Positions 4,692-22,858 of a DNA stretch of 40,615 bases are shown piece after piece. Made by a program: the position numbers and the translations under genes. Where the stretch lies: positions 1 through 40,615 of the IMG/VR virus record IMGVR_UViG_3300014656_000051, one strand, 5' to 3'. Each line of letters starts with the position of its first letter. The stretch's first letter is position 1. The notes below the pieces were generated by a model. The model made no database searches, was not told the DNA's origin, and worked only from the letters and a program-made list of their open reading frames with translations. Source of the DNA: a virus. Taxonomy: Duplodnaviria; Caudoviricetes.

Positions 4692-4720
4692 TTGACTTTT
4701 CGGTTTCGTTGTGTTAAAAT
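4692..4720 (+). promoter_or_regulatory. Sigma70-type promoter for the small early ORF cluster
   Basis: TTGACT-17 nt-TAAAAT with extended TG, in an AT-rich intergenic gap. Confidence 0.8.
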
Positions 4721-7157: not shown

Positions 7158-8650
7158 CACCGCACAGTGCCGTTCCAGGGGCTAATATCACTGTGAATGA
7201 GGCCGAGCTGGTCCGGTCCATCTGCCACGAAAGTTTCTATGCTTTCCTTCAGGAGTTCTGGTACGTCGTAGTCCCCGAAAAACCGGTTTGGAACTGGCAC
7301 ATCGAATATCTTTGCAACACTTTCCAGAAGGGCGCAGAAAGAGTGTTCCGAGGAGAACCAAAACTACACGACACCATCGTGAACATCCCGCCCGGTACGA
7401 CCAAATCGACCATCCTAAGCATCATGGCCCCGGCATGGCTCCACGCCCGCCGCCCGGACATCCGTGTCCTTGCCGCCTCCCACACACAGAACCTCACGTT
7501 TGAATTAGGAAGGAAATGTCGTATGGTGGAGGAAAGCGAACTCTACCGAAAAGTCTTCCCTGAGGTAAAGCCCAGCCACGACCAATGGACAAAAAGCCTG
7601 TTCATGAACGATGCCGGGGGAGGCCGAATGGCTTGCACTGTAGGAGGAATGTCTCCCGTAGGATTCCACGCCCATTTCATCATCGTTGACGACCCCCTCG
7701 ATCCTCAGCAAGCCAGCCGTGTATCTGAGGTGGAGCTTGGTATGGCAAACAACTTCATGTCAGAAGTGCTTCCTACCCGTAAGGTAGACAAAGACGTGAC
7801 GATCACCTGGCTTATTATGCAGCGCCTGCATCAGAACGATCCTAGTGGATTCCTCCTGAGCAAGTCGAAGGAGAACATCCGCCACATCTGCTTGCCTGCA
7901 GAACGTAGCCCCAAGGTCAAGCCGGTACGTCTCCGCCGCAGGTATACCGAGGATGGCCTCCTTGACCCTGTCCGGCTTTCAAGGAGTATTCTTGATGAAG
8001 CCAAGATTGACCTTGGGGAGTACGGTTATGCCGGACAATATCAACAGCATCCAGTGCCCCGAGGTGGGGGTATGTTCAAGACAGAAAGGATAGAGATAGA
8101 CGTCCCGCCGCCGCTCACATCTAAGCATTGGGTCGGGCTTTGTAGGTTTTGGGACAAGGCAGGCACAGCAGGAGGTGGGGCTTACACCGTTGGTTTCCTA
8201 ATGGGACGATGGCGGCCTGCTGGAGCCCCTAAAGACGGCTCGGATGATAATTGGTGGATCCTGGACGTTGTTCGCGAACAGCTCGATAGCGGTGAGCGCG
8301 AGAGACTGATAAAGGCCGTAACACACCGGGATGGAAAGCGCGTAATTGTTGGCTTGGAACAGGAGCCTGGGTCGGGCGGTAAGGAGAGCGCTCAAGCAAC
8401 CGTGAAGCGTCTGGCTGGGTATCGGGTTCGGGTGGTGCCTGCCGTGGGGAGCAAGGAAGAACGGGCCGACGAGTGGAGCACCCAGGTCAATATGGGGGTG
8501 TTTAAGATGAGGGAAGCCCAGTGGAACATCACTCTAGTCGATGAGATGCGGTATTTTCCATTCTCAGCCTACAAGGACCAGGTGGATGCAGGTGCTGGTG
8601 CTTTTACCATCCTGGCGAACCTCTCTAGGCGTGTGGGCGGTGTCACATAG
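7142..8650 (+). CDS. terL: Terminase large subunit
   Basis: NIPPGTTKS (Walker A variant), IVDDPLDP, IMQRLH.ND, YAGQYQQHP, RFWDKA, KDQVDA nuclease motifs. Confidence 0.93.
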   Translation: MSGAITPHSAVPGANITVNEAELVRSICHESFYAFLQEFWYVVVPEKPVWNWHIEYLCNTFQKGAERVFRGEPKLHDTIVNIPPGTTKSTILSIMAPAWLHARRPDIRVLAASHTQNLTFELGRKCRMVEESELYRKVFPEVKPSHDQWTKSLFMNDAGGGRMACTVGGMSPVGFHAHFIIVDDPLDPQQASRVSEVELGMANNFMSEVLPTRKVDKDVTITWLIMQRLHQNDPSGFLLSKSKENIRHICLPAERSPKVKPVRLRRRYTEDGLLDPVRLSRSILDEAKIDLGEYGYAGQYQQHPVPRGGGMFKTERIEIDVPPPLTSKHWVGLCRFWDKAGTAGGGAYTVGFLMGRWRPAGAPKDGSDDNWWILDVVREQLDSGERERLIKAVTHRDGKRVIVGLEQEPGSGGKESAQATVKRLAGYRVRVVPAVGSKEERADEWSTQVNMGVFKMREAQWNITLVDEMRYFPFSAYKDQVDAGAGAFTILANLSRRVGGVT

Positions 8651-8678
8651 ATACTCGTGCCATCGAGGAGGCAGGCCG

Positions 8679-8825
8679 GTGAAGATCGTCCTAAAAACGA
8701 TACTGAGGTGCGGTGTGTCACGACAGCGGGATATAGCTGTGGGTACAGCGGCACGGGCCGTGCTAAGAGCGGAGGAAGTGTATGAGGAAACGAAGGGGTT
8801 GAGGCACTTGCGCGGTGTGTTATAA
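8679..8825 (+). CDS. Hypothetical protein (48 aa, GTG start)
   Basis: GAGGAGG RBS before the GTG. Confidence 0.4.
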   Translation: MKIVLKTILRCGVSRQRDIAVGTAARAVLRAEEVYEETKGLRHLRGVL

Positions 8826-8826
8826 T
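8799..8826 (+). promoter_or_regulatory. Extended -10 promoter
   Basis: TTGAGG-16 nt-TATAAT with TGn extension; GAGGAG RBS downstream. Confidence 0.6.
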
Positions 8827-8845
8827 GTGAGAGAGGAGACCGGAG

Positions 8846-9013
8846 ATGTTGGAGTTGGTTTTGGTTTGGCAGATCTTCACGCTGTTGGTCGTTGTCAGGG
8901 CGGCTCACCTCGTCCTGCGAGAGCTTGCGGATATTCGTAGGGCTATTGAAACGCAACGCTGTGTGTGTCTAATCCACCGACATAACACCCACGGGGAGCC
9001 TGGAAGAAAGTGA
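8846..9013 (+). CDS. Small membrane protein (55 aa)
   Basis: Translated by hand: MLELVLVWQIFTLLVVVRAAHLVL... (hydrophobic N-terminus). Confidence 0.5.
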   Translation: MLELVLVWQIFTLLVVVRAAHLVLRELADIRRAIETQRCVCLIHRHNTHGEPGRK

Positions 9014-9014
9014 C

Positions 9015-9488
9015 ATGGTGATCAGGCTGGACATTGACCCGTCTCATGCCATATGCGACCGGCATAAAGAGCTCTTCCAGCAGCATTGGCCTGTTGGATA
9101 CCTTGAGTTTGTTAGTCTGGCCGTGCAGCATTTCTTGAAGAAGCCGGAGGTGGCTGAGCGTGTGCAGCGCTTGCGTGATGAAACACCAGCTCTAAGACAG
9201 AGGGGAGGCCCTGTCGACGAGGCTAGTATAATCACATACCTGCTCACGCAGAAGTTGGCACACGAGCCGTTGTGTTGTCAACTTCTACCCGAGACGTTGT
9301 ATGACATCCTCATAGAGGTGGATAAACATAAGGCAGTGTGGGCGAGCCATTGTTGTGTCCTGTGTGGTCTGATGGCTCCTTGTATTGGTCGCCCTAAGAT
9401 CCCTCTAAACGGTGACATATCACCACTGTCTGGTCACTATGAACACGTCTGCCTGGCCTGTGTGTGCGGGGTGTTTCCTAATCGATAG
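9015..9488 (+). CDS. Hypothetical protein with C-terminal Cys pairs
   Basis: CCVLC...HVCLAC; fills the gap before the portal. Confidence 0.55.
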   Translation: MVIRLDIDPSHAICDRHKELFQQHWPVGYLEFVSLAVQHFLKKPEVAERVQRLRDETPALRQRGGPVDEASIITYLLTQKLAHEPLCCQLLPETLYDILIEVDKHKAVWASHCCVLCGLMAPCIGRPKIPLNGDISPLSGHYEHVCLACVCGVFPNR

Positions 9489-9513
9489 AAGACTACTTTT
9501 CAGGAGAAAGCAC

Positions 9514-11049
9514 ATGGCACTAAAAGTCGATGCAACCAATGATGAGATGGTGCTAAACACCATCCTCCGTAGCCCCGAACTTGTATTCAATATGATGACC
9601 CAGCGCTCCGACCTGCTCCAAAAGCTTTTCGACCCTCGCAGGGACATCGACGACGAATGTGGCTACCCCAAGACCATCACGGAGGAACAATATCGGCGTA
9701 TGTACGACCGGGAACTGGGACGCCGGGTGGTTGACGTCTACCCGCAGGAGACATGGAAGAAGTTTCCCCGCATCTACGAGGACCCGGATGCAGAGCAAGA
9801 AACGGACTTCGAACGATCCCTAGACGCCATGGAAAGACGTCTCCACTTACTTCACTATATGCAGCGGGCGGACGAATTAAGTGGTGTGGGCCACTATGGC
9901 GTCGTTCTATGGGGCCTTGATGACGGGAAGAACCTCAGTGAGCCAGTCGATGGGTGGGAGAGCTGGGAGGAAACCACGGGTAAGCCATATGAGGGCAAGC
10001 CGCCCGAACGCCGGGTGATGTATATCCGAGTGCTGGACGAGTCGCTCGTGGCTATTGCATCCTACGAGACAGATCTCTCAAACCCGCGTTATGGCCTCCC
10101 CCAGACGTACAACGTTTCCCTGGCAGATCCTCGGCGCTTCGAGAGCGGCGCTGCGGTATCTCCACCGAACATATCGCAGGCCCGAGTACATTGGACGCGC
10201 ATTACTCACATCGCGGACAACCGGAAAACATCCGAGGTCCTTGGCACGCCCCGTATGGAACCGGTGTGGAACCGTCTCTATGACCTCCGGAAGGTGCTTG
10301 GCGGCAGCGGCGAGATGTATTGGCGCGGCGGCTTCCCCGGCGTATCCCTGGAGACGCAACCGGGCCTTGAGAACGCCGAGCTCGACGAGGACGCCACCCG
10401 TACAATGATGTTCAACTACATGAACGGGCTGCAACGCTATATCAGTCTCGTCGGGATGAGCGCGAAATCCCTGGCACCGCAGATTGCTGACCCCACGTCC
10501 TCGTTCGAGGTGCAGGTGAAGGCTATCTGCGTGGTGCTCGGCGTTCCGTTCCGAGTGTTCATGGGGATTGAGGAAGGTGTTGTGTCCGGTGACCAGGCCA
10601 CTAAAGCCTGGGAAGGCCGCCTCCAGAACCGGCAGAAACGATACGTGACACCGATGATTATCGACCCCATCCTGCAGCGCCTTGTTAACTATGGCACGCT
10701 GGCCCCCACCGCCGAGCCCCAGGGATGGACCGTCGACTGGCCGGACCTCACATCACCGAACGAGCAGGACAAAGCCGATGTGGCCGCCAAGAAGACGGAA
10801 GCCTTTGCGAAGTACGTGGCCGGTGGTGTGGATACCCTGATCCCGCCGATGGAGTTCCTGACGTTGATTTGTGGTCTGGACAAAGACACGGCAGAGACAA
10901 TCATTGAAGCCGCCATCGAGCATATCGAGGGGATCGAGCATGAAGGGGAGGTGGTACCAGCCCGGTTGCCGAGACCACCTGAACTGGCCGGGGGCGAGAT
11001 CCCAGAGGAAGAAAAGGCCCTCGCTAAGGAAGAAGGAGAAAAGGTATGA
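9514..11049 (+). CDS. Portal protein (DUF1073-like)
   Basis: Position after terL; RRVVDVYPQETW, YGLPQTY, RVHWTRI, GVPFRVFMG, VDWPDL; AGGAG RBS before the ATG at 9514. Confidence 0.85.
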   Translation: MALKVDATNDEMVLNTILRSPELVFNMMTQRSDLLQKLFDPRRDIDDECGYPKTITEEQYRRMYDRELGRRVVDVYPQETWKKFPRIYEDPDAEQETDFERSLDAMERRLHLLHYMQRADELSGVGHYGVVLWGLDDGKNLSEPVDGWESWEETTGKPYEGKPPERRVMYIRVLDESLVAIASYETDLSNPRYGLPQTYNVSLADPRRFESGAAVSPPNISQARVHWTRITHIADNRKTSEVLGTPRMEPVWNRLYDLRKVLGGSGEMYWRGGFPGVSLETQPGLENAELDEDATRTMMFNYMNGLQRYISLVGMSAKSLAPQIADPTSSFEVQVKAICVVLGVPFRVFMGIEEGVVSGDQATKAWEGRLQNRQKRYVTPMIIDPILQRLVNYGTLAPTAEPQGWTVDWPDLTSPNEQDKADVAAKKTEAFAKYVAGGVDTLIPPMEFLTLICGLDKDTAETIIEAAIEHIEGIEHEGEVVPARLPRPPELAGGEIPEEEKALAKEEGEKV

Positions 11050-11228
11050 GGTTGTTGGATAAGCTCGAAAACGTCTCCCAACACCAGAACACTCGATGGA
11101 GTGTTGCGGATTACGTTTTCGTGGGTGCTATGATAGCCCTGCTCCTGACCTGGTTGTGGTGCTATGTCACGTCAATAAATGTGTGTATGGATGTTCTGTA
11201 TCACATAGCGCCGGAGATAGTGAGGTGA
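11046..11228 (+). CDS. Small single-TM membrane protein (holin/antiholin candidate)
   Basis: Hydrophobic YVFVGAMIALLLTWLWCYV; lies just upstream of the endolysin. Confidence 0.5.
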   Translation: MRLLDKLENVSQHQNTRWSVADYVFVGAMIALLLTWLWCYVTSINVCMDVLYHIAPEIVR

Positions 11229-11253
11229 GCGTGATAACGGCTATACCGACCTC

Positions 11254-11319
11254 AACGGGTGTGGGCTAGGCTGACGGGCCGAATAGCGGGGTCTTCCCTG
11301 CCGCTTGCCCACACCCGTT
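11254..11319 (+). promoter_or_regulatory. Structured intergenic RNA element upstream of the endolysin
   Basis: 13-bp perfect stem AACGGGTGTGGGC/GCCCACACCCGTT enclosing two small hairpins, followed by TTGTT. Confidence 0.55.
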
Positions 11320-11341
11320 TTGTTGATGAGGGAGAGATGCT

Positions 11342-11866
11342 ATGAACGGCGAGAACTTCCGGAAAGCCTTAGAAAAACTCCTGACCATCGAAGGCGGTCC
11401 ATCGAACCATGCTTGGGACCCCGGTGGCGACACCGCGTTTGGGATCTCGAAGGTGCATTGGCCGCAGTATTGGGAGGACGGGCCGCCGACCCGCAGGACG
11501 GCCGAGCTGTTCTACATGGAGGAGTTCTGGAAACCGCTGTGCCTGAGCGAAATTGACTACCAGCCGCTCCGTGTGGAGATGCTAGAAGCGGCCGTCAACT
11601 GTGGCCTAGCAAATGGAGCTAAGTTTGCGCAGCGTGCATACAATCTCCTGAGGCCCCGTAGCTGGACAGAGCTGATTGTGGATGGGGTTGTTGGTCCACG
11701 AACGCGGGGCGCTCTGAACCGCCTGGTTGAGCACTATCCGGATGCCCTCATGGCCGGGTGCAACTACTTCCAGGCAGAGTACTATGTTGATACGCGGGAG
11801 GAACTTCGGAGTAATGCTATCCGGGGCTGGTTTACCAAGCGCCTCGTATGGACGGTACATCACTAG
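11342..11866 (+). CDS. Endolysin, glycoside hydrolase family 108 with PG-binding segment
   Basis: IEGG....DPGGDTAFGIS, AVNCG, DGVVGPRT, GWFTKR. Confidence 0.88.
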   Translation: MNGENFRKALEKLLTIEGGPSNHAWDPGGDTAFGISKVHWPQYWEDGPPTRRTAELFYMEEFWKPLCLSEIDYQPLRVEMLEAAVNCGLANGAKFAQRAYNLLRPRSWTELIVDGVVGPRTRGALNRLVEHYPDALMAGCNYFQAEYYVDTREELRSNAIRGWFTKRLVWTVHH

Positions 11867-11883
11867 ACTCTTGGAGGAACATC

Positions 11884-12144
11884 ATGGCTAGGAAGCTTCC
11901 GCGTGTAGGCCAACTTGTACGGGTCACCTGGGTCGATAGCAGAGGCTACGAGAACGGGTGGGTGCAGCGGGATGACATGGACGGTGACGTGATAGAGCTG
12001 ATGAGCGTGGGATGGGTCTGGCATGTTGCGAAGGATCGAATGACGCTGGCCCCACACATGGACGTTGAACAGACACAGGCTTGTGGCACGCTATCTATTC
12101 CATGGTGTGCCGTGCGGGAAGTGCTTGTGATGCGAATGGAATAA
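11884..12144 (+). CDS. Conserved-looking small phage protein
   Basis: LVRVTWVDS...GW...SVGWV...IPWCAV pattern; GGAGG RBS. Confidence 0.65.
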   Translation: MARKLPRVGQLVRVTWVDSRGYENGWVQRDDMDGDVIELMSVGWVWHVAKDRMTLAPHMDVEQTQACGTLSIPWCAVREVLVMRME

Positions 12145-12164
12145 TGAACTGAGAGGTTTGAATA

Positions 12165-15100
12165 ATGGCCGTTGTTTTCCAGGAACCCCTCGTTATCAAT
12201 GCTAAGAAGCGAACGAAGGTCCAGAACCCCATCAGGATGGACCCTACCAGAACGACGATGCTGCGACGACAGCTTACTGCTGAGATGGCCCGGCGCTTCT
12301 CGGCACTTCGCCGAGCAATCGTTCAGTTGGTGGATGTTGAGGACGCATTTGGTCTCAGGGCCGATGCTAAGGCTGCAAAAAAGCACGCAGGGGCGGTGCA
12401 GGTTGCCACGAGTCGCACGATCCCTCTAGAGGCTATACTTAACACCGCCCTCGTCACGAATACCCGCTGGCGTTTCGAGACTGACGACGTAAAGCTTGAT
12501 GCTTACCGAGGATGGCTGAAAGAACAAACGAAGGCGGGTATCCTCGAGGTGAGCGGACCGAACCAGAAGACCCCGTGGCTCGAACCCTACATCGGAAGCG
12601 CCTACAAGAAGGGGATGATGCGGGCTTACACCGACGCCCACGCGGCGGACATCGTTGCTGCCGGGAAAAGCTTCGAGTTCATCGAGGGTGGCAAGAAGGC
12701 CTTTCTGGACATGTCGTTCAACTCGCCCACCGCTCAGGGCAAGCTCCGGATGCTTAGCACCCGCGCCTATAGCCAGCTTGAAGGTGTTACCGCTGCGATG
12801 GACCAGGAAATGAGCCGTATCCTGGCCCAGGGGATTGCCCAAGGGAAGGGGGCGGAGGCTCTCGCCCGTGAGCTCAGTAATAGTGTGAGCGGGATCGAGA
12901 GGAAGCGTGCCCGTGTCATTGCCCGTACCGAGTTGGTTCATGCTCACGCCGAAGGCCAGCTCGATTCCTTCGAGGCCATGAACATTGACGAGGTCGGCGT
13001 CATGGCCGAATGGAGTACGGCCACCGATAGCGTCGTCTGCGAACTGTGTGCCCCGCTCGAGGGCGTCATCCTAACGGTGAAGGAAGCACGGGGGATGATT
13101 CCTCGGCACCCGAACTGTGTGGCAGGGGATATGCGGATATTAGCTCCCGGTGCGTTGGCAATGCTCAAAACACATTACACCGGTGAGATAATCAAGCTTG
13201 TCACAGTAGGGGGCCGTCATATCACCGTCACTCCGGCACACGTACTGCTCACGAAATATGGTTTCGCCCGCGCGGAAGCGGTCTACGACGGTCTTGATCT
13301 TGTGGTAGATACGGGGTTCCACGGAAGGGGTAAGGCACCAGATTATAAACACGACGTAGCCCGTGTTGCGGATGAATTCGTAGCGGCTACGAAAACGCTC
13401 GGCGTGCCAACCGTATGCGTGCCAACCGCCCCCGAATACCTCCACAATGAAGGGCGTTTCTGTGATGAGAAGATCGACATTGTATTTGCCGATGGCATAT
13501 TGGGGCGTAGTGGGAAGACCCACGGACGTGAGCCCGGCTTGTACAACACGCTCCCATTCTGTGAGGGAGGGTTTAGCCGCTTTGCCTTGAGCACGCTTGC
13601 ACAAATCTTCTTCAGTACGGCGCATACCTCGGACAGCAGCATGGGCCGCTGCCGTGATGCGTTGGCGTTCCTTCTTGGATGTGTTTTGAAAGCGAAGCAA
13701 GTTCGCCTCGGTGCCATTTCGAGTACGGAATCCAATGGTGCGCAGGCGGTTTTGAACAACGCTCCTGGTAATATTAAGCTCCTTTGCGATTGCCTTGACC
13801 GACACCCCGTTCTGAAAAAGCTTAACAATCTTGGTAACATCGACTTGGACGCGGTTTTGGCGGGTGGCGTTCCAGGGATCGAAACCCGCCTTGTCGAAGT
13901 GGGCCTTGATTGTATCCCACTTGACCCCATAGTGTTTGGCGATACGGTTCAAGGACCATCTTTGCCTCACGTGCAATTCGATAAGATCTCCTGTGTCAGG
14001 AAGTTTCATGTCTCCTCCTTTCCGGTGTATGATGTACAGACAATAAGCACAGTATATAGCATCGGCGGTATAATTGCAAGTAATTGCCGGTGTGCTTGGA
14101 TCCCGGCGAATGTGGGGGAACACATTGGGGGCACAACAAAGACCACCTGGGCCGGGCCGGAGCAGGGCCTCGCGCCGCCTGGTACAAAACCCACTGGCAA
14201 GACTACTGGACAGGTCTGGCATAAGGACGAAGCGGCTGCCCGGTTGCGCCAAAGCATCAAGGCAGAGCACCCGAAGCTGAGTGCTACTGCCGCTCGTAAG
14301 GCCAGCCGGTGGGCCGGGGCGGATATGACTACTGTGAGCGGGAAGCTGAAACCGGGTAGTAAGGCTTGGATCTCGGCGAAGGCCGCTGCCAAAGCAGAAA
14401 AGGCCAAGGCATCTATTGCAGCGGTTAAGGTAGCCAGGAAGAAGAAGGCCGTTGCGGCTACCGCCCATTCCCTCGCCGTGAAGATCGGGATGACAAAGAA
14501 GAAATATGGCATCACGGACGAGATGATTTTCTACCCTGGGGGTGGTAAGGAACCAGACTTCCTTATTGAAGGCGCGGAAGCGTGGGTAAAAGCGCAGGGG
14601 TTGAAAGTGTCGGATATAGAATGGTTGTCCTTTAGTAAAGCCGCGAAGGCTAGGAAGGTACTAGAGCCCACAAAACCCACTCTCCAGGCGCAGGCCGAAG
14701 TCCTAAGCGAAATGGTGGCTGCCAAGAAGGCGACGAAGGCTCTCACCGATGACGCGGCAAAGGCTGTGAAGGCCTGGTCCGGCACCGGCCCTGTGGCAGA
14801 GGTGCTAGACCATGCGGACTATAGGCTTGTGCCGGGCTGGGAGCAGCTACCGGCTGGGAGTGTCAAGCGCCAAAGCTACGGCGTCGTCCTCTTCGACGAT
14901 CAGGGCCGTGTGCTCCTGCGCGAGCCCACCGACCACTTCGGTGGAACGCACTGGACCTTTGCGAAGGGCGGTGGGTGGCCACCGGGCTCGACCGCCCTCA
15001 AGGAACTGGGCGAGGAGACCGGGTACATAGCCACCATCCACGACATCCTACCGGGCAAATTCAAGGGCACGCAGACACAGACCAACTACTTCCTAGGAAA

Positions 15101-18100
15101 GTCCTCTGGCTTCGACCCTGGCCTCATGGACCTGGAGACAGCCGGTACGAAATGGATGACCTATGACGAAGCCCTAGCCGCTATTGCGCAGAGCAAGAGC
15201 GCGACGGTGGTGGCACGGGATACGGCGGTGTTGCAGGCCGCCTACAAACATCTTTCGGGAGGTGATCCGAAGCTGTTCGCTGGTGTGGTAAGTAGCGGTA
15301 AGGACAGCCTAGATGCTGCGAAGGCGGTAGCGGCAAAGGCGGCCCATTCCCACAGAGTCAAGCTGGACATGGCCCAGAAACATTTCGCCAAACCGAAGTT
15401 CGGCGGCGGTGTGGTGGATGCGGACTGGGTCAACCCAGGGACCAAGCAAAAGCTCAACGTTGACGGGCTGAACAAGGTGTTGTCCGAGAAAGGGTGGCAC
15501 CTAACGACGCTCCCGAAGGACGTGTCCACAGACCTCCTCGGCGTCGCTGATGATGTGGTAACGCAGAAGGCCATCATAGACGGGTTGAAGAAGGCCCCGA
15601 AGACTGTGCCCAAACCACCCGCTGCCAAACCGACACCTAAACCACACCCGGCCTTGGTCTCGGCTGACGAGTTTACTGGAGACCTCCACGACGATGTCGC
15701 TGAAGCGTTATCTAAAGGCCATCTTCATCCAGACGATGTTGATTATTTGGACCTAAGTGACACGCTTATGGAGTGGGCCGAGGAAAAAAAGCTAGCCCCT
15801 GGCTGGCTAGACGACTTCGACCATGAAATGTTAGCCGAGCATTTCAATATGTTCAAGAAGGCTCATCCGAACCTGTATGGTAAAATCGATGACATACCCG
15901 CCCCGCGTTTCCCATCTGGTGAGGAAATAGAAGATATAATGGGGTGGACCAGGCCTCGAGCGGCTTTGCCAGCAACGGTATGGGACGAGAAGGACTTCTT
16001 CAAGAGCGGCAAACTGAAGAAGGGCGCTATCTATGACAAGCTGAAGGGGCACGGGCTCAGCGACACGCAGGCAGCCGATCTCACCGACAAGTTCATCGCC
16101 ACCTCCCCTAAGACATATGCGCTGCCCGGACAAGCGGCGGAAGCCTTTGACGAATTCCTCGAAGAGCCGCTTGTGCTTGCCAAGATGGGAAAACTACCGG
16201 GGGCACCGCCTACGGCTCCAATCCTTACCGAGACGATTGAGGTGCCCCTCGAGCGCGATTTGAAGAAGGTGGCAAACCTTCCCGGTTCCACTAAGCCCTG
16301 GAAGGCCAAGGACAAGGCGGGCAAACACTGGGTCGTGAAGGATGTGAGCGGGAGCAAAATAGATCCAGACCACCTCCGTAGCGAGGGCCTGGCAGATGAA
16401 CTGTACAGGCGGCTGGGGATTGCGGTGCCGAAGGGGAAAATTATCAATGCTCCTGGCGGCCCGATGAAAATCACCGAGTTCCTGGAGGGTGGCCAGACGC
16501 TTGCCGAATGGAAGGTGGGCAAGAGCGTTGTCAAGATCAAGGAGATGTATGCGCAAATCCGGAAGGGGGCTGTAGCAGATGCGTTGTTTGCCAACCACGA
16601 CGTCGGCGGGCTGAGCTTCGACAACATCATGGTCGTTGGGGGCAAGGCTTACCGCATTGACAACGGCGGCGCTTTGCTCTACCGGGCGCAGGGCGGGATG
16701 AAGAGAACGTGGAAGAATAAGGTGACAGATCTGGCTACTATGCGGGATCCCAAACACAACGAGGTCACCGCTGCCATCTTTGAGGACCTCACCGACGACG
16801 AGATCCATCAGCAGATCCGGTATATCGTGGCGCACAAACAGGATGTGCTCGCAGCTATTGTAGATGATGGCCTTCGCGGTACTATGGCGGCCCGTATTGA
16901 CGACCTGGCCTCCCGGCTGCCCTCTAGACCGGCCGTCAGGCGACCCAGGGCCGTGCCTGTGGGCAAACGCCGGGCCGAGTACGGTAACACCCCCGACGCT
17001 GCCCCACGGGCCAAGGCGGCCAAAAGCAACGGGGTCAACCTAGCGGGTGATAAGAACGACATCGAAGACGATAACATCCTTGTGTGGGAACAGCTCGGGC
17101 GTGACAATAAACCCCAAACTCGTGTACAGCTCAAGGTGACCCATGAGGGTAGCGAGAAGGTAAAAGCAACCTTGGGGGATGAGTTGGAACGGGCGCAACG
17201 GGCGGCGGCTCCTACGGTCACGAACCCGAATGTTCACCCCGATGACGCCTACTGGGATGTGGTGTTGGCTGGAGCGAAAACTGTTAGCATACACGCGGGT
17301 GATGGGAAGTTCAATACCACAATCTTGGACAAGTTTGCCAAGGCCAAGGAGCAGGTTGTCAAGAAGCTGAAGACGGCTACCGGCGACAAAAAGAAAATGC
17401 TCAAGCACTATGCGGTCGCTATTGACGAGATCGAGACGGCAAAGAGGACTGGAAAGACGCTGCCGAAAGGGTTGTTGTCTCAGTATGTTCACAAACCTAA
17501 GCCCAAGGCGGCCGTGCCCCAACCCAGGCGACGTGACATGCGGGTCCGTCGGGATAGCGGAATAGACTTCCCTACTGCTGACTTCAAGAACGGCACTGGC
17601 CGCGTGAATACTGGACACAATAATTTCAGCAGCGAGGCGTACATCATCGATATGGGCGATGCGGCTGAGGGGGTGGAGGTAAAGTTCCTCCCGAACGATG
17701 GTGGGTTTAATCAGGCGAAGGGCCGGGCGATGCATGGAACTATCAGCATTACTGTGGATGGTGAGGTAACCCAGGAACGCATCGACGATGCTCTGAGTAT
17801 CCTAAAGAATCTCGGGCTTGATATAGCACCACCCCCTCCGGCCTTCGAGGAGGCGCTCTACATTCACCGGGGCGTGTACCTGCGGGGCAAGCATACAAGT
17901 AGTGGTTATAAGACTATCTGGGAGAACAAGAGCATCACTGACGAGGAAAAAGTGACACAACTCAAGAAGTGGGTGAAGAAGAATATGCAGGTGGACCTTG
18001 ATAAGGTGGCACAATATGACCCAGCCGGTGTAGCTTCGAACGCGGACGGCAGTGGTTTCCGCCATTGGATGCGGTGGGACCTGAGCGAAGACGACGTCCG

Positions 18101-18671
18101 CAGGGAGATGTCCGATTACACTATTCAACACACGACGAAAGGCCTCTCAGAAAGCCCCACGGGGGCTGTATCGAAGACGCTTGCGAATATTCTGGACAGC
18201 GGCGGTGAGTTTACAAGCACAACCGGCCGTATTCGGAAGGGTGTTAGTGTAGGCCTAACAGGCGGTGCTTCGAGCAGCAGTGACATCAATTCTGGTGGCG
18301 GTAGCTACTTCTTTACACGTATTAAGAAGGTGGCTAGCGTGCAGGCGCATGGGTTCTTCTTCCGGCCGAGCCTGCTGGCTAGACAGGACCCGATCAGCTA
18401 TAGCAGTGACACATTCGGTAGTATTAGCGCTCTTCACAAGAGAGCCTCGACTATTGAGCAATTCAAAGCCTATGCCAGGAATTCTGGCAACGAGACCATC
18501 TTTAAGGAAGGTCTTAGTTTGGCCGACCTTGATTATATACGCATACGGCCCGATGAGCGCGCGAGTGTGCTAAAGGTGTTCAAGGACCGGGGAATTACGA
18601 CTCTGCCTGATGGGAGGCCAGTCGAGGACATTGTGATTACGACAAAGGCACCTAAGAAGAGGAACCTGTAA
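12165..18671 (+). CDS. Giant MuF (SPP1 gp7-like) head protein with intein and C-terminal NUDIX, kinase-like and putative ADP-ribosyltransferase domains
   Basis: DPTRTT.LRR, RARVIARTE, WSTATD.VC..C..LEG, IPRHPN|CRC (MuF); Nudix-like KELGEETG; DALFANHD..DNIM..RIDNGG; H-T...SGG...GGSYFFTR...NE. Confidence 0.85.
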   Translation: MAVVFQEPLVINAKKRTKVQNPIRMDPTRTTMLRRQLTAEMARRFSALRRAIVQLVDVEDAFGLRADAKAAKKHAGAVQVATSRTIPLEAILNTALVTNTRWRFETDDVKLDAYRGWLKEQTKAGILEVSGPNQKTPWLEPYIGSAYKKGMMRAYTDAHAADIVAAGKSFEFIEGGKKAFLDMSFNSPTAQGKLRMLSTRAYSQLEGVTAAMDQEMSRILAQGIAQGKGAEALARELSNSVSGIERKRARVIARTELVHAHAEGQLDSFEAMNIDEVGVMAEWSTATDSVVCELCAPLEGVILTVKEARGMIPRHPNCVAGDMRILAPGALAMLKTHYTGEIIKLVTVGGRHITVTPAHVLLTKYGFARAEAVYDGLDLVVDTGFHGRGKAPDYKHDVARVADEFVAATKTLGVPTVCVPTAPEYLHNEGRFCDEKIDIVFADGILGRSGKTHGREPGLYNTLPFCEGGFSRFALSTLAQIFFSTAHTSDSSMGRCRDALAFLLGCVLKAKQVRLGAISSTESNGAQAVLNNAPGNIKLLCDCLDRHPVLKKLNNLGNIDLDAVLAGGVPGIETRLVEVGLDCIPLDPIVFGDTVQGPSLPHVQFDKISCVRKFHVSSFPVYDVQTISTVYSIGGIIASNCRCAWIPANVGEHIGGTTKTTWAGPEQGLAPPGTKPTGKTTGQVWHKDEAAARLRQSIKAEHPKLSATAARKASRWAGADMTTVSGKLKPGSKAWISAKAAAKAEKAKASIAAVKVARKKKAVAATAHSLAVKIGMTKKKYGITDEMIFYPGGGKEPDFLIEGAEAWVKAQGLKVSDIEWLSFSKAAKARKVLEPTKPTLQAQAEVLSEMVAAKKATKALTDDAAKAVKAWSGTGPVAEVLDHADYRLVPGWEQLPAGSVKRQSYGVVLFDDQGRVLLREPTDHFGGTHWTFAKGGGWPPGSTALKELGEETGYIATIHDILPGKFKGTQTQTNYFLGKSSGFDPGLMDLETAGTKWMTYDEALAAIAQSKSATVVARDTAVLQAAYKHLSGGDPKLFAGVVSSGKDSLDAAKAVAAKAAHSHRVKLDMAQKHFAKPKFGGGVVDADWVNPGTKQKLNVDGLNKVLSEKGWHLTTLPKDVSTDLLGVADDVVTQKAIIDGLKKAPKTVPKPPAAKPTPKPHPALVSADEFTGDLHDDVAEALSKGHLHPDDVDYLDLSDTLMEWAEEKKLAPGWLDDFDHEMLAEHFNMFKKAHPNLYGKIDDIPAPRFPSGEEIEDIMGWTRPRAALPATVWDEKDFFKSGKLKKGAIYDKLKGHGLSDTQAADLTDKFIATSPKTYALPGQAAEAFDEFLEEPLVLAKMGKLPGAPPTAPILTETIEVPLERDLKKVANLPGSTKPWKAKDKAGKHWVVKDVSGSKIDPDHLRSEGLADELYRRLGIAVPKGKIINAPGGPMKITEFLEGGQTLAEWKVGKSVVKIKEMYAQIRKGAVADALFANHDVGGLSFDNIMVVGGKAYRIDNGGALLYRAQGGMKRTWKNKVTDLATMRDPKHNEVTAAIFEDLTDDEIHQQIRYIVAHKQDVLAAIVDDGLRGTMAARIDDLASRLPSRPAVRRPRAVPVGKRRAEYGNTPDAAPRAKAAKSNGVNLAGDKNDIEDDNILVWEQLGRDNKPQTRVQLKVTHEGSEKVKATLGDELERAQRAAAPTVTNPNVHPDDAYWDVVLAGAKTVSIHAGDGKFNTTILDKFAKAKEQVVKKLKTATGDKKKMLKHYAVAIDEIETAKRTGKTLPKGLLSQYVHKPKPKAAVPQPRRRDMRVRRDSGIDFPTADFKNGTGRVNTGHNNFSSEAYIIDMGDAAEGVEVKFLPNDGGFNQAKGRAMHGTISITVDGEVTQERIDDALSILKNLGLDIAPPPPAFEEALYIHRGVYLRGKHTSSGYKTIWENKSITDEEKVTQLKKWVKKNMQVDLDKVAQYDPAGVASNADGSGFRHWMRWDLSEDDVRREMSDYTIQHTTKGLSESPTGAVSKTLANILDSGGEFTSTTGRIRKGVSVGLTGGASSSSDINSGGGSYFFTRIKKVASVQAHGFFFRPSLLARQDPISYSSDTFGSISALHKRASTIEQFKAYARNSGNETIFKEGLSLADLDYIRIRPDERASVLKVFKDRGITTLPDGRPVEDIVITTKAPKKRNL
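13140..14009 (-). CDS. Antisense-encoded HTH plus Vsr/DUF559-like (PD-(D/E)xK) putative homing endonuclease, 289 aa
   Basis: Two HTH-like segments (WSLNRIAKHYGVKWDTIKAHF; GVSVKAIAKELNITRSVVQNRL), then TEWE...L...G...QYAIGKYNVDLL....FIVEVFGGGWH....RYEFIRNTGYVVFIIW; AAAGGAGG SD 4 nt before the ATG. Confidence 0.85.
   Translation of the reverse strand: MKLPDTGDLIELHVRQRWSLNRIAKHYGVKWDTIKAHFDKAGFDPWNATRQNRVQVDVTKIVKLFQNGVSVKAIAKELNITRSVVQNRLRTIGFRTRNGTEANLLRFQNTSKKERQRITAAAHAAVRGMRRTEEDLCKRAQGKAAKPSLTEWERVVQAGLTSVGLPTTPQYAIGKYNVDLLITETPFIVEVFGGGWHAYGWHAERFRSRYEFIRNTGYVVFIIWCLTPSVEPRIYHKIKTVVDRFRAGETIFREQYVCRSDGDMTAPYCDKLDYLTGVMCFEHCQRTGS
14051..14079 (-). promoter_or_regulatory. Antisense sigma70 promoter for the intein-nested endonuclease
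   Basis: Minus strand reads TTGCAA (14079-14074), 17 nt, TATACT (14056-14051); SD at 14021-14014. Confidence 0.78.
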
Positions 18672-19036
18672 TGACCGTGAAAGAAAGACTAACCGAACTG
18701 ATCGCCAAAGGCGGTGTGATCTCACTTATGTCTCCCGATATTGAGCTCACGCTGGCCGGGGCATTATGGCGTGAGGACGAGGAAGGCACCTACCTGCGCT
18801 GGTGCGCTATCTTCCCAGAGCACCAGGGGCATATACATCATCTATATTATGACAAGGCGGTGCTGGATAACGACGGCCGGGACATCCTGTTCTACCGAGG
18901 GGGCGAGTTGGTGGCGGGGGTGGTTCCTTACATCGAAAGTAATCTTCCTGCCGATGATGTACATGAGGCGCTTGCCCGGTGGAAAGACGCGGTGGCGCAG
19001 GATATGTATTTCGACGAGTTCCTCGCGGAAGCGTAG
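18671..19036 (+). CDS. Acidic 121-aa protein, candidate immunity/antitoxin for the MuF effector
   Basis: TAATG translational coupling to the MuF stop; small and acidic; function inferred from position only. Confidence 0.55.
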   Translation: MTVKERLTELIAKGGVISLMSPDIELTLAGALWREDEEGTYLRWCAIFPEHQGHIHHLYYDKAVLDNDGRDILFYRGGELVAGVVPYIESNLPADDVHEALARWKDAVAQDMYFDEFLAEA

Positions 19037-19038
19037 AC

Positions 19039-19434
19039 ATGTGGCTCGCTACCAAACACGGTTTCTACTCAATCGTCTGTGCCCATGGGCCGGACGGCAA
19101 ACCGCATCCGGAACTCATGATGATCCGGGCGCGGAAGCATTCCCACCTAGTAAACCTCCAAAGGTTCCACGACGATCTTGGTCTTATTCGGAAATCAGAG
19201 GGCACGGATTATCCATATCGTATTTTCGCTGGCCGGGACGTTGTGTTGTCAATGGTGGCTCGTCTAGCGGCGGAGATCTACTATGATAACTTCAAGGGGG
19301 TGGTGACTATTACTATGCCAAAAGACGCCGCTTATAAGAAGTTCCTTCACTCTGTGTGGGGCCTTGGTTTGAGGTTGACACCGGCTCGGGTGTGCCGGGC
19401 GTCCTTCTTTTGCTATCCGGACGAGGTTGTGTAA
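19039..19434 (+). CDS. Conserved hypothetical phage protein (MW..T..GFYS...IRAR...DYPYR...YDNFK type)
   Basis: Recognisable motif pattern; starts 2 nt after the previous stop. Confidence 0.7.
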   Translation: MWLATKHGFYSIVCAHGPDGKPHPELMMIRARKHSHLVNLQRFHDDLGLIRKSEGTDYPYRIFAGRDVVLSMVARLAAEIYYDNFKGVVTITMPKDAAYKKFLHSVWGLGLRLTPARVCRASFFCYPDEVV

Positions 19435-19456
19435 AACTCCTTCCCGATAATTCCCC

Positions 19457-19485
19457 TTGCGTTCTGACGTTCCTTTCGCTATACT
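19457..19485 (+). promoter_or_regulatory. Sigma70-type promoter
   Basis: TTGCGT-17 nt-TATACT. Confidence 0.75.
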
Positions 19486-19532
19486 ATGGTCGTTCGATAC
19501 GTTGGTCATAGCATAGCTTGAGGAGACTAGAG

Positions 19533-19724
19533 ATGGCAGACCGTAAGCGAGGTTCCGGCAAGCTGGACCCGAGATTCAATACCAAGCGCACTAAGGGCGC
19601 GCACCCCAACGCGCCCCGAACCGCCACCATGCCACAGGCGTCCTCCCCTGTGGCGGCATCTCCCCCGAAGACGGAGGCTTCCGAGGAGGCCTCCGTCCCA
19701 AAAAAGTCCAAGGCCAAGTCCTGA
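19533..19724 (+). CDS. Small basic, low-complexity protein (63 aa)
   Basis: GAGGAG RBS; first ORF after the promoter. Confidence 0.6.
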   Translation: MADRKRGSGKLDPRFNTKRTKGAHPNAPRTATMPQASSPVAASPPKTEASEEASVPKKSKAKS

Positions 19725-19752
19725 GGCTAGGCTTTTTCGGTAGGTCGGAAGC

Positions 19753-19845
19753 ATGAAAGACCTTCTGAAACGCATCGGGAAGTTTAAGTGGTTTTCTGTC
19801 CGATTCAAGATGCCACGGCAACGTAAACGGAGGAAGCGGCGATGA
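19753..19845 (+). CDS. 30-aa highly cationic peptide
   Basis: MKDLLKRIGKFKWFSVRFKMPRQRKRRKRR*; ATGA-coupled to the next gene; RBS weak. Confidence 0.4.
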   Translation: MKDLLKRIGKFKWFSVRFKMPRQRKRRKRR

Positions 19846-20324
19846 ATATTTTGACAAAGCTCCTGGAGAGCCCAATGGTGCTGAACCTGGCTCTATCTTC
19901 GCTGGCGGCAGTGTGGGCGTGGATTAAGGCCAGCGATTGGTGGCAGGCTCGTGTGACCGGGAAGAAGGCGGAAGCGCTGGAGTGTCTCGAGCTTGGAGCC
20001 GAAAAAGCTTATGAGGCTTATGTGCGGGGCATCCAGGCCGGAAGAGAAGACGGAACGTTGACGGATGACGAGCGTGCCGAGGCCCGTCAGCTAGCAATCG
20101 ACGCGGCGGTGCGCTATGGGAAAGAGCGGGGCCTGGATTTGTTGGCCCTGCTGGGGTCGACTGCGGTGGACGCGATGATTGGGCTTGTGGTCAATAAGGC
20201 CAAGCGAGCGGCTGCCGAGGCTCGTGCAGCAAAAAGGGCGGAACGTCATCCATACCTGAACGACTTCTCGGAATGGGCAGCTATGGCAAAGAAGACCCTA
20301 GCTGAAAAGGACGCTGTGGGGTAA
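19842..20324 (+). CDS. Holin-like membrane protein (LL-H-like architecture)
   Basis: One N-terminal TM segment, then a helical domain with AYEAYV...DGTLTDDERAEARQLA. Confidence 0.5.
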   Translation: MNILTKLLESPMVLNLALSSLAAVWAWIKASDWWQARVTGKKAEALECLELGAEKAYEAYVRGIQAGREDGTLTDDERAEARQLAIDAAVRYGKERGLDLLALLGSTAVDAMIGLVVNKAKRAAAEARAAKRAERHPYLNDFSEWAAMAKKTLAEKDAVG

Positions 20325-20333
20325 AGATTTCCC

Positions 20334-20361
20334 TTGCTTCTGGTCAAAGATGTGCTATACT
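20334..20361 (+). promoter_or_regulatory. Sigma70-type promoter for the head genes
   Basis: TTGCTT-16 nt-TATACT with extended TG; AGGAG RBS downstream. Confidence 0.7.
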
Positions 20362-20381
20362 AAACATGACAGGAGAACGAG

Positions 20382-21863
20382 ATGTTCACGACGCTGACGT
20401 TCAATTTGGCCAACGCGGCCATCCGGCAGGAACGCCTCCACGACCGTGACTATACAGTTGCACCGCTAGCGATGTTGACAGAAGGCGTCCACAGAGGTTC
20501 TGGTGGGCCGCTCCTGTATCAGGAAGTCGAGTGCAAGAGGGCGGTGCCCGCCTGGAACATGAAGCCCATCGTAGTGTACCACCCGCAAATCAACGGCCAG
20601 GGTGTGAGTGCATGTGATCCTGATATCCTCGAGCGCCAGCAAATCGGGATGTTGATGAACACACGATGGGATGGGAAGCTTCGTGCGGAGGCTTGGATTG
20701 ATCAGAAAAGGGCTAGGGCCGTGGATAGCCGGGTGCTAGACGCGCTTGAAGCGAACAAGATGATGGAGGTGAGCACGGGGTTGTTCACCGACAATGTGGG
20801 TGAGCCCGGCGAGTGGAACGGCGAGGCGTATGACGCTATTGCGACTAACCACCAGCCCGATCACTTGGCCCTCCTGCCGGACAAGGTTGGGGCTTGTAGT
20901 ATCGCGGACGGTGCGGGATTGCTTATGCTTAACGAGACGGCCAAAGCCGAAGGGCTTGATCTCACCGGCCTATTCGCACGCCAACTGGACATTGTGCGGC
21001 GCATGGTGGGGAATGCGATGTCGCACTCGAACATCCATTCCGCCCTGCACAAGGCGCTCGTAGAGAAGCTTGGTCAAGGAATTGGTAAGGACCCCCCGTC
21101 CGTGTGGATTGTGGATGTGTACGATAGCTTCTTCGTCTACGAACACGAGGACGAAAAGAGGCTGTTTAAGCTCGGCTTTTCTTCGAGCGACACTGGGGTT
21201 GAGATCACCGGGGAGCCCGAAGAGGTGCTCCGCGTGACGGAATACCGCACCGTCGGGGGTGCGTTCGTAGGAAATAGTGTGGACAAAGAGGGCGAGACGC
21301 CCAGTGTAGCGAACGAAAGGAGAAACAAGATGGAGAAGGACAAGCTGATAGAAGCCCTCATCGCGAACGCGCGGACGAAGTGGAGCGAAGAGGATCGCGA
21401 GGCTCTGACGGCCCTTGAGGCGGCGGTGTTAGAGAAGATATTGCCCACCGAAGAAGAGGCCGAGGCCGAGCAGAACGAGGCCGGGGAGAAACCTGCACTC
21501 GAGGAAAAGCCCGCTCCCGAGGAAAAGCCCGTGACGATGGAACAGTATGTACGGAACGCTCCTCTGGAATTCCGTGATGTGCTTACGAGCGGCTTGGCGG
21601 CTCACCGTGAGCAAAAGGACGGTCTGATTGCCAAGATCACGGCGAACAAGGCCAACCAGTTCTCGAAGGAGTTTCTTGCCACGAAAGGCATGCAGGAGCT
21701 CCGGGGCCTTGCGGCCCTGGCCGAGGCTAACGCGCCGCAGGCCAATGAGAGCAATATAATCCCCATGTTTGCGGGGGCATCGACCCTTGCTGGACCGGTC
21801 CAGAACGTTGAGGACGAACAACCCTTGACGCCTCCCGTGATGAGTTTTGGTACTGAAGGCTAA
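20382..21863 (+). CDS. Prohead protease/scaffold (DUF2213-like)
   Basis: WNMKPIVVYHP, EVSTGL, PDHLALLP...GACS...GAG; acidic scaffold-like C-terminal half. Confidence 0.8.
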   Translation: MFTTLTFNLANAAIRQERLHDRDYTVAPLAMLTEGVHRGSGGPLLYQEVECKRAVPAWNMKPIVVYHPQINGQGVSACDPDILERQQIGMLMNTRWDGKLRAEAWIDQKRARAVDSRVLDALEANKMMEVSTGLFTDNVGEPGEWNGEAYDAIATNHQPDHLALLPDKVGACSIADGAGLLMLNETAKAEGLDLTGLFARQLDIVRRMVGNAMSHSNIHSALHKALVEKLGQGIGKDPPSVWIVDVYDSFFVYEHEDEKRLFKLGFSSSDTGVEITGEPEEVLRVTEYRTVGGAFVGNSVDKEGETPSVANERRNKMEKDKLIEALIANARTKWSEEDREALTALEAAVLEKILPTEEEAEAEQNEAGEKPALEEKPAPEEKPVTMEQYVRNAPLEFRDVLTSGLAAHREQKDGLIAKITANKANQFSKEFLATKGMQELRGLAALAEANAPQANESNIIPMFAGASTLAGPVQNVEDEQPLTPPVMSFGTEG

Positions 21864-21883
21864 CGACAAAAGGAGAAAAGACG

Positions 21884-22858
21884 ATGGCCGATAACTTGAA
21901 TACAATCGTGCTTCGCGGCAAGGGCCACCATGACGAAGGCGAGGCGGATGCCGCTATTAGCCCAGGCGAGGCGGTACGGTTGGCAGCCGATGGTTGCTGG
22001 GACCCCGAAACGCTGGCAGCGGACGTTGCTGCTGGACGGGGTATCGTTCTGGCGAAGGAGAATGCGCTGGAAGGCCAGACTGTTGACGACGCCTATGCAG
22101 ACGGGGATATCCTCTTCCTGTATTACCCGATCCCGGGAGACGTGGTACATGTGCTCGTGAAGCTGGGTGAGGACATCGACGTCGGGGACTACCTGGACGT
22201 CGAGGGTTCCGGCAGCGGAAAGTTCATTGAGGTCAGTTCGGCGGCGACGGCAGAGTACAAGCTTTCGTTGACTAGCGCCAAGGTCTGGGATGCGATGGCA
22301 ACGGACCTACCGGCAGCCGCAGCGAACGACGATATGGGCCTGATTACCGGCACACCCGGCACGGACGCCCCGACCCTTCAGGGCGTGGACTTTGGTGGTG
22401 CCGCGACCGACGAGAAGTGTGCGTTCGAGTTTGTGCTCCCGCCTGAGTACCGTGCGGGCTCTGCGATTACCCTTCGCTGCAAAGCGGGCATGCTGACGAC
22501 CGTTGCCGATGAAAACACTACGGCAGTCTCGCTCGACGCCGAGGTCTGGGTCGATGCTGGTACTGGCCTTGTGGGTAGTGACATATGTGCTACGGCGGCC
22601 CAAGCATGCAACAGTTTGACCATGGCTAACCTGGACTTTACTATCACACCGACCGGCCTTGAGCCTGGCAACCGGCTGATCATCAACCTGACTTTGGCTG
22701 GTGACGACGCTGGTAACTTGGGAGTGATGATCCCAGAGATCCAAAACGTTGCGCTCCTGGTCGGGAACGCGGCGGTTGGGCGACTGATGGCCCTGGAAGA
22801 TTCCGGTGGTGCTCTGGCAGCGGCAGCGCTGCTTAGGTGCCGTGTCATGGGTCTGTAA
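21884..22858 (+). CDS. Head decoration (cement) protein with a large inserted domain
   Basis: Position between protease and MCP; AISPGEAV...DDAYADGD...PGDVV..LV..GEDIDVGDYL and C-terminal ALED...LLRCRV. Confidence 0.65.
   Translation: MADNLNTIVLRGKGHHDEGEADAAISPGEAVRLAADGCWDPETLAADVAAGRGIVLAKENALEGQTVDDAYADGDILFLYYPIPGDVVHVLVKLGEDIDVGDYLDVEGSGSGKFIEVSSAATAEYKLSLTSAKVWDAMATDLPAAAANDDMGLITGTPGTDAPTLQGVDFGGAATDEKCAFEFVLPPEYRAGSAITLRCKAGMLTTVADENTTAVSLDAEVWVDAGTGLVGSDICATAAQACNSLTMANLDFTITPTGLEPGNRLIINLTLAGDDAGNLGVMIPEIQNVALLVGNAAVGRLMALEDSGGALAAAALLRCRVMGL

Follow-up and report, generated by a model that had tools for sequence, protein, structure and literature searches.

Codons of a phage intein's C-terminal splicing region are predicted to double as promoter, ribosome-binding site, and start codon of a nested antisense nuclease gene

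In canonical inteins, the homing nuclease is expressed as part of the host protein. Inteins with anti-sense VSR-like HENs were described in actinobacteriophages, and minor capsid proteins are listed among the hosts of non-canonical inteins (Gosselin, Arsenault, and Gogarten, bioRxiv 10.1101/2025.01.02.630785). In the main text of that report, the word "promoter" occurs 0 times and the expression of the antisense ORF is left open. For the endonucleases of phage T4, the available part of PMC2988022 gives promoters that are middle or late, never early, and that run in the direction of the host gene. The same source describes one antisense case, segD, for which no promoter was found, and promoters inside a coding sequence, namely the gene 32 promoters within segG.

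The locus described here lies in a 40,615-nt stretch of viral DNA (IMG/VR record IMGVR_UViG_3300014656_000051), herein referred to as the window. This 40.6-kb tailed-phage contig codes for helicase, primase, terminase, portal, endolysin, MuF, head protease, and tape measure proteins, all on the plus strand. An uninterrupted intein in the MuF gene carries an antisense nuclease ORF with a Vsr-like predicted fold, which places this intein in the class of Gosselin et al., as defined in their main text. Homologues of this nuclease were also found in the MuF genes of Gordonia phages. Our main reading, to which we give a probability of roughly 0.85, is that the codons of the C-terminal splicing region would double as a housekeeping-sigma promoter, a ribosome-binding site, and a start codon for the nested antisense Vsr-like nuclease. 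The features are collected in Table 1.

Table 1. Positions of the host gene, the intein, the antisense ORF, and its predicted expression signals in the window
Feature	Position	Strand	Description
MuF-like head morphogenesis gene	12165..18671	+	2168 aa; intein host; PF04233 1.2e-12, phrog_758 1.4e-31
NUDIX domain	aa 902-1012 of precursor	+	in long C-terminal part of MuF; PF00293 1.3e-8
Class-1-type intein	13116..14084	+	323 aa, Cys1 to Ser-Asn; insertion point HPN|CRC
Antisense ORF	13140..14009	-	289 aa; two HTH units and Vsr/I-Bth0305I-like nuclease domain
-35 box TTGCAA	14074..14079	-	over Ile-Ala-Ser codons of block G; L009 identical, L008 TTGTAA
-10 box TATACT	14051..14056	-	over Thr-Val-Tyr codons; L009 identical, L008 TATAGT
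Predicted transcription start (A)	14044	-	7 nt past -10; inferred only, from spacing rule
Shine-Dalgarno region with AGGAGG	14013..14021	-	over Ser-Ser-Phe codons
ATG start	14007..14009	-	complement of His codon (CAT) ahead of block F

The part of MuF that follows the intein (14085-18671, plus strand) comprises 1528 aa and is without a PHROG match. Near aa 1370-1500, we noted by eye a putative kinase-like stretch. With its NUDIX-containing C-terminal part, MuF looks like a protein carrying enzymatic or toxin-like cargo.

The intein belongs to class 1 by its sequence and predicted fold, and its splicing is putative. Among 35 aligned inteins, Cys1, the N-terminal nucleophile, is invariant, and the Thr-x-x-His of block B is present, with T39 nearly invariant and H42 invariant. 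The C-terminal end has the class 1 residues of blocks F/G, with Val-Tyr-Asp at 304-306, Asn323, and Cys+1; Asp306 is taken here to be position 4 of block F (F:4). The structural model, with pLDDT of about 90 at both ends and a low-confidence or disordered middle, is consistent with a HINT fold, and its best Foldseek matches are inteins (E 7.6e-6). The penultimate residue is Ser322 rather than His, which is common but not obligatory at this position in class 1. The roles of the class 1 residues were taken from the available part of PMC4031507, in which penultimate Ser is known for KlbA inteins. Among five close MuF relatives, one (L710, N-extein 75% identical) has an intein-free allele of the HPN|CRC site, and in two (L712, L713) a different intein occupies the same site; this is the pattern expected of a mobile element. 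In six other loci (L092, L096, L101, L287, L304, L325), the antisense-nuclease intein resides in hosts unlike MuF, that of L101 resembling by eye a dCMP deaminase, which suggests host-gene switching.

The nuclease ORF is codon-for-codon antiparallel to the intein, and its final 44 codons overlap the N-terminal splicing region. Its C-terminus has a DUF559/MTES_1575-like profile match. The assignment to the Vsr-like family comes from fold searches, since a profile search of PDB sequences found 3r3p with no better than E 0.21. The top Foldseek match of the nuclease model is also 3r3p (E 7.9e-4), and the model was aligned with Vsr (1cw0: Z 11.5, rmsd 2.2, 113 aligned) and with I-Bth0305I (3r3p: Z 9.5, rmsd 2.7, 95 aligned). 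In 18 nuclease sequences, E153 and D179 are invariant and H197 is nearly invariant; their spacing of 26 and 18 compares with 26 and 17 for Glu170, Asp196, and His213 of I-Bth0305I, the residues being matched by spacing and not by superposition. A conserved Asp after H197, expected from Asp222 of I-Bth0305I and Asp97 of Vsr, was not found in these 18 sequences, which have a nearly invariant R209 instead. Judged by the model, the nuclease resembles the EDxHD family, yet it is not filed here as a strict member, and cleavage is predicted.

The nuclease frame is open for more than 150 codons upstream of 14009, through the C-extein (13140-14468, minus strand), an extension not kept in most relatives. 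The ATG at 14468, corresponding to an ORF of 442 aa, was rejected as the start: the nuclease profile and the homologues begin at the Met at 14009, and in most relatives the frame is interrupted by stops within blocks F/G. Another minus-strand ORF (13343-13930) is without a Pfam match at E 0.1. In L008, a close relative, an in-frame stop follows the first HTH of the nuclease (about column 275 of the alignment) and the boxes have slightly drifted, possibly an early stage of decay.

The sequence-only reading had reported TTGCAA-17-TATACT, a Shine-Dalgarno (SD) sequence, and an ATG on the minus strand over blocks F/G, and at 14079-14007 they were re-read exactly so. After TATACT, the minus strand reads GGAAAGGAGGAGAC, followed by ATG; the plus-strand codons 14001-14081 are KFHVSSFPVYDVQTISTVYSIGGIIAS, followed by Asn (14082-14084) and Cys+1. 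The hexamers match the sigma-70 consensus at 4/6 (-35) and 5/6 (-10) positions with a 17-nt spacer, and the T that opens the -35 box pairs with the initial A of the penultimate Ser codon, AGT. Transcription start was placed by the established spacing rule from the -10 box, and the SD duplex with the anti-SD motif is predicted at -12.1 kcal/mol.

A strict promoter rule (TTG, 16-18 nt, TAnnnT with at least 5/6) gave 8 matches in the 40.6 kb, 7 of them forming cassettes with an SD and ATG within 70 nt downstream; 40 order-2 Markov simulations contained 0.025 cassettes per genome (maximum 1). The intein promoter is the sole minus-strand match under this rule. The six further cassettes, all on the plus strand, are found at 4692, 6338, 8799, 19457, 20334, and 26321. 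One of them, TTGCGT-17-TATACT at 19457, had earlier been named as being of the same style as the intein promoter, and the site is real. Four of the plus-strand cassettes lead short ORFs of 64, 55, 63, and 9 codons, the 9-codon one being possibly a leader peptide or RNA. The same style also precedes the genes for the terminase small subunit and the head protease. Thus, TTGCAA-17-TATACT corresponds to the phage's ordinary promoter style, and the intein promoter need not be early. Generic scans were uninformative: 5 promoter sites were found in 8000-22000 (6.0 expected) and 20 terminator-like sites against 12.3 +/- 4.1 expected, and no terminator is claimed. A hairpin sequestering the ribosome-binding site, as in T4, is not claimed, the predicted leader fold being weak (-9.4 kcal/mol over about 75 nt, without a shuffle control).

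When the intein was recoded synonymously, a promoter this good together with a 6-nt SD had a P of 0.0009 with extein codon usage and 0.003 with uniform usage; for the promoter alone, P was 0.04-0.11. The lone site of the window is thus only modestly significant, and the weight is carried by the family data.

Nuclease searches gave 111 phage records, mostly of Salmonella, Pseudomonas, Gordonia, Klebsiella, and Escherichia phages, and 537 IMG/VR stretches; relatives include cultured E. coli and Gordonia phages. The fetched set comprised 80 IMG/VR stretches, 10 genome loci, and 18 record stretches. The antisense nuclease ORF is annotated in none of the 18 phage record stretches opened, and in Snoke (L006, MK931441) the annotated intein boundaries differ from the HPN|CRC-type site. 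Of 109 sequences examined, 108 have the nuclease in codon-for-codon antiparallel register with a long host ORF, and the remaining one gave no profile match; an intein C-terminus was located in 104 of them (82 distinct). In most relatives, the His codon of His-Val-Tyr-Asp/Asn-Leu-Gln/Glu provides the start codon on the opposite strand, where the block-F Asp/Asn-Leu-Gln/Glu codons read GGAGG. A nuclease-blind DNA pattern for this motif plus NCRC retrieved 120 loci, 119 with an antisense nuclease frame; 40 short loci among the 120 were traceable over only about 100 codons.

As controls, inteins with closed antisense frames were collected with codon-neutral patterns, loci with unclassified long antisense frames and those that were too short being excluded. 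Several inteins from the control search (L469, L495, L403, L420, L231, and a few others) have long antisense open frames of 150-340 codons without a nuclease-profile match, possibly other antisense genes. Collapse at 75% nucleotide identity reduced 269 antisense inteins to 137 representatives and 173 controls to 115. In two sets not selected for His, His precedes Val in 39/56 and 20/27 antisense inteins, compared with 6/115 controls.

The signals of translation are the most uniform ones. The block-F Leu is encoded by CTC, which spells GGAG on the antisense strand, in 86 of 107 antisense inteins (28 expected from extein usage) and in 3 of 39 controls; within the same block, CTC accounts for 127/150 codons of this Leu vs 16/191 for other Leu residues. 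The His at the start position is CAT, or ATG in antisense, in 92 of 113 inteins (47 expected). No excess was found for GAC at the block-F Asp (48/83, expected 50), for TTC at the block-F Phe (10/20, expected 13.5), or for yTG at the Leu at -3 (14/30, expected 12). An SD with a start codon is present in 39/61 Ser-ending and 37/66 His-ending antisense inteins vs 0/115 controls.

This uniformity would suit an alternative in which the translation signals alone are real: antisense RNA arising spuriously or by read-through would serve as the nuclease message, and the promoter-like hexamers would simply result from AT-rich codons of Ile, Tyr, Leu, and Ser. The P of the intein promoter taken alone would fit this alternative as well. 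Promoters were scored by counting matching positions in both hexamers and adding 2 when the -10 was extended, with a threshold of 9 or more; the score was chosen after the alignments had been seen and was applied equally to controls, nulls, and the sense strand. On the antisense strand, this threshold was reached by 39/61 Ser-ending (recoding null 6-8), 29/66 His-ending (null 4-7), and 6/9 other-ending inteins (null 2-3), and by 8/115 controls (null 4-6). A second test used 295 loci with enough flank, single-linkage clusters of the nucleases, and a null sampled from codons pooled over the region. Strong antisense promoters were found in 111 of 184 inteins clustered at 60% identity (null 24.9, maximum 38; sense strand 15) and in 74 of 126 clustered at 50% (null 19.3, maximum 31; sense strand 10). 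The remaining 73/184 (about 40%) are below the threshold, as the translation-only alternative would have it; failures are commoner in GC-rich contigs, of which 29/64 pass above 60% GC. Against that alternative, the excess survives the pooled-codon null, and neither the sense strand nor controls of similar amino acids show it. The boxes also pile up at fixed antisense offsets: in Ser-ending inteins, the window's included, the -10 peaks at offset 28 (18/61) and the -35 at offset 5 (22/61), 17 nt away, and for His-ending inteins the -10 maximum lies at offset 9 (25/66), often with an extended TG. Moreover, the annotated long genes nearby are all on the plus strand. We consider signals of translation alone unlikely.

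The promoter and SD signals are thus family-wide, written in synonymous codon choice, and confined to inteins with the antisense gene. The check proposed earlier asked whether inteins retaining the antisense ORF conserve the boxes at synonymous sites; they do (111/184 vs a null of 25, with 8/115 in controls), and the codon bias, absent from controls, supports the proposal of the sequence-only reading that the element would carry its own expression signals.

The signals could also date from the invasion of a mini-intein by a free-standing nuclease gene and persist as an unused relic through common descent. Such an invasion is proposed, and a pseudogene fate allowed, in the main text of Gosselin et al. 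(10.1101/2025.01.02.630785), and the nuclease of L008 is broken; the near-consensus boxes that L008 keeps despite its in-frame stop speak against our main reading. However, the signals lie within conserved splicing codons and not in inserted DNA. Nuclease identity among relatives is mostly 25-43%, so neutral synonymous sites should not stay fixed. In the pair of the window and L009, both hexamers are kept exactly while regional synonymous sites differ at 42%. In the same single pair, the middle of the intein evolves as nuclease, with omega 0.28 and 0.21 in the nuclease frame and about 0.5 in the intein frame, and blocks F/G evolve as intein (0.11 vs 1.3). The nuclease ORF is under purifying selection by these single-pair estimates (omega 0.21-0.28), and the SD has moved along with the start codon (see below). 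A relic is, on this evidence, very unlikely.

By geometry, a transcript from this promoter would be antisense to MuF, whose C-terminal part is long, and its chief role might be an antisense RNA restraining MuF and its cargo, the nuclease being secondary. The promoter is, however, always accompanied by an SD, a start codon, and a conserved ORF; it is also found in short MuF genes and in non-MuF hosts, and it is missing from control inteins. We regard such a chief role as extremely unlikely and retain the promoter of the nuclease as the main reading.

The promoter also bears on the penultimate residue of the intein. A TTG at offset 5 needs an A-initial penultimate codon, so a His codon cannot supply it. 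In a search neutral to Ser codons, penultimate Ser is AGY in 36/46 antisense inteins vs 9/42 Ser-ending controls (Fisher p 1.4e-7), a contrast against which the nuclease remnants in at least two of these controls work; this bias indicates that the promoter shapes the codon. The sequence-only reading had noted Ser in place of the usual His next to the -35 box. AGT does supply the first base of the box and the codon is AGY-biased, but a penultimate Ser is also seen in inteins lacking the antisense gene (42 controls). A FastTree of 135 nucleases implies at least 17 changes between His and Ser, compared with 37-45 in the ten label shuffles listed. Register A (-35 at offset 5) was found in 36/72 Ser-ending vs 6/55 His-ending inteins as raw counts; for independent pairs, only 7 lie on starred branches (median p 0.625).

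The position of the start codon varies as well. The usual SD at the D-L-Q codons is present in 58/82 inteins with His just before Val vs 7/35 where the start has moved (p 5e-7), and several shifted-start inteins, including that of the window, have a new SD at the right distance. The window represents this minority type: its start lies several codons downstream and its SD is over Ser-Ser-Phe, start and SD having moved together. Taken jointly, these data allow a tentative and rather doubtful reading in which the need for a nuclease promoter repeatedly rewrote the catalytic end of the intein, lineages switched registers, the nuclease represses itself, and the splicing site co-evolves with regulatory DNA of the opposite strand. 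Within it, a -35/-10 register (A-initial Ser, Lys, Arg) may alternate with a His-compatible, -10-only register, and the nuclease may repress itself through the C-extein half homing site that sits 5 bp upstream of the -35 box; the idea of autorepression comes only from this half-site and the T4 precedent.

As to mechanism, MuF mRNA cannot yield an antisense nuclease, nor can splicing release one, so the nuclease would need its own transcript. Its signals would have to travel in the homing DNA, in which the ORF is preceded by only about 75 nt, those of blocks F/G; hence they would be overprinted there. Host RNA polymerase would start a minus-strand transcript near 14044, and ribosomes would load at AGGAGG and translate the nuclease from the 14009 ATG. 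HPN|CRC alleles free of the intein would then be cleaved by the nuclease, and their repair would transfer intein, nuclease, and promoter as one unit. The putative nuclease transcript would converge on MuF mRNA. A search for RNA sequencing runs listed none, which bears on the transcript in neither direction. Even if expressed independently of the virion gene, the nuclease need not be made early, since T4 endonuclease promoters are never early in the available text of PMC2988022.

In our literature search, which covered the main text of Gosselin et al. and a minority of subscription papers, no report of promoters or SD sequences inside intein blocks F/G was found. The gene layout was already published in 2025; relative to the literature found, the new element is the predicted embedded expression signals for the antisense nuclease. 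They offer a concrete answer to how an antisense intein nuclease could be expressed, the question left open by Gosselin et al. The same stretch of about 75 nt would supply splicing-motif codons, a promoter, and a translation start, which would make the mobile unit self-sufficient in any host gene. With its built-in controls, the family provides a clean natural example of regulatory information overprinted on coding sequence.

Compared with the inteins of Gosselin et al., as presented in the main text, the window has the same full-length intein, the same antisense Vsr/EDxHD-like nuclease, and the same structural matches (1CW0 and 3R3P); the family reaches beyond their actinophages to Salmonella, Pseudomonas, Klebsiella, and Escherichia phages. 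With I-Bth0305I and the EDxHD family, as far as described in the available part of PMC3239194, the nuclease shares a Vsr-like catalytic domain behind an N-terminal DNA-binding region and the spacing of Glu, Asp, and His. I-Bth0305I sits in a group I intron, whereas the window's nuclease is antisense in an intein and is without the last Asp. The Vsr-like nucleases of fractured genes lie between split-intein halves and have promoter elements and hairpins in their own 5' untranslated region (PMC2677866, in part); in contrast, the signals of the window are overprinted on splicing codons. Like the intron-encoded and free-standing endonucleases of T4 (PMC2988022, in part), the window's nuclease would be a mobile enzyme that is encoded within a host gene and brings its own promoter and ribosome-binding site. 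Unlike the T4 promoters, the one predicted here resembles host-sigma sites, runs antisense, and is written in the codons for the catalytic end of a protein-splicing domain.
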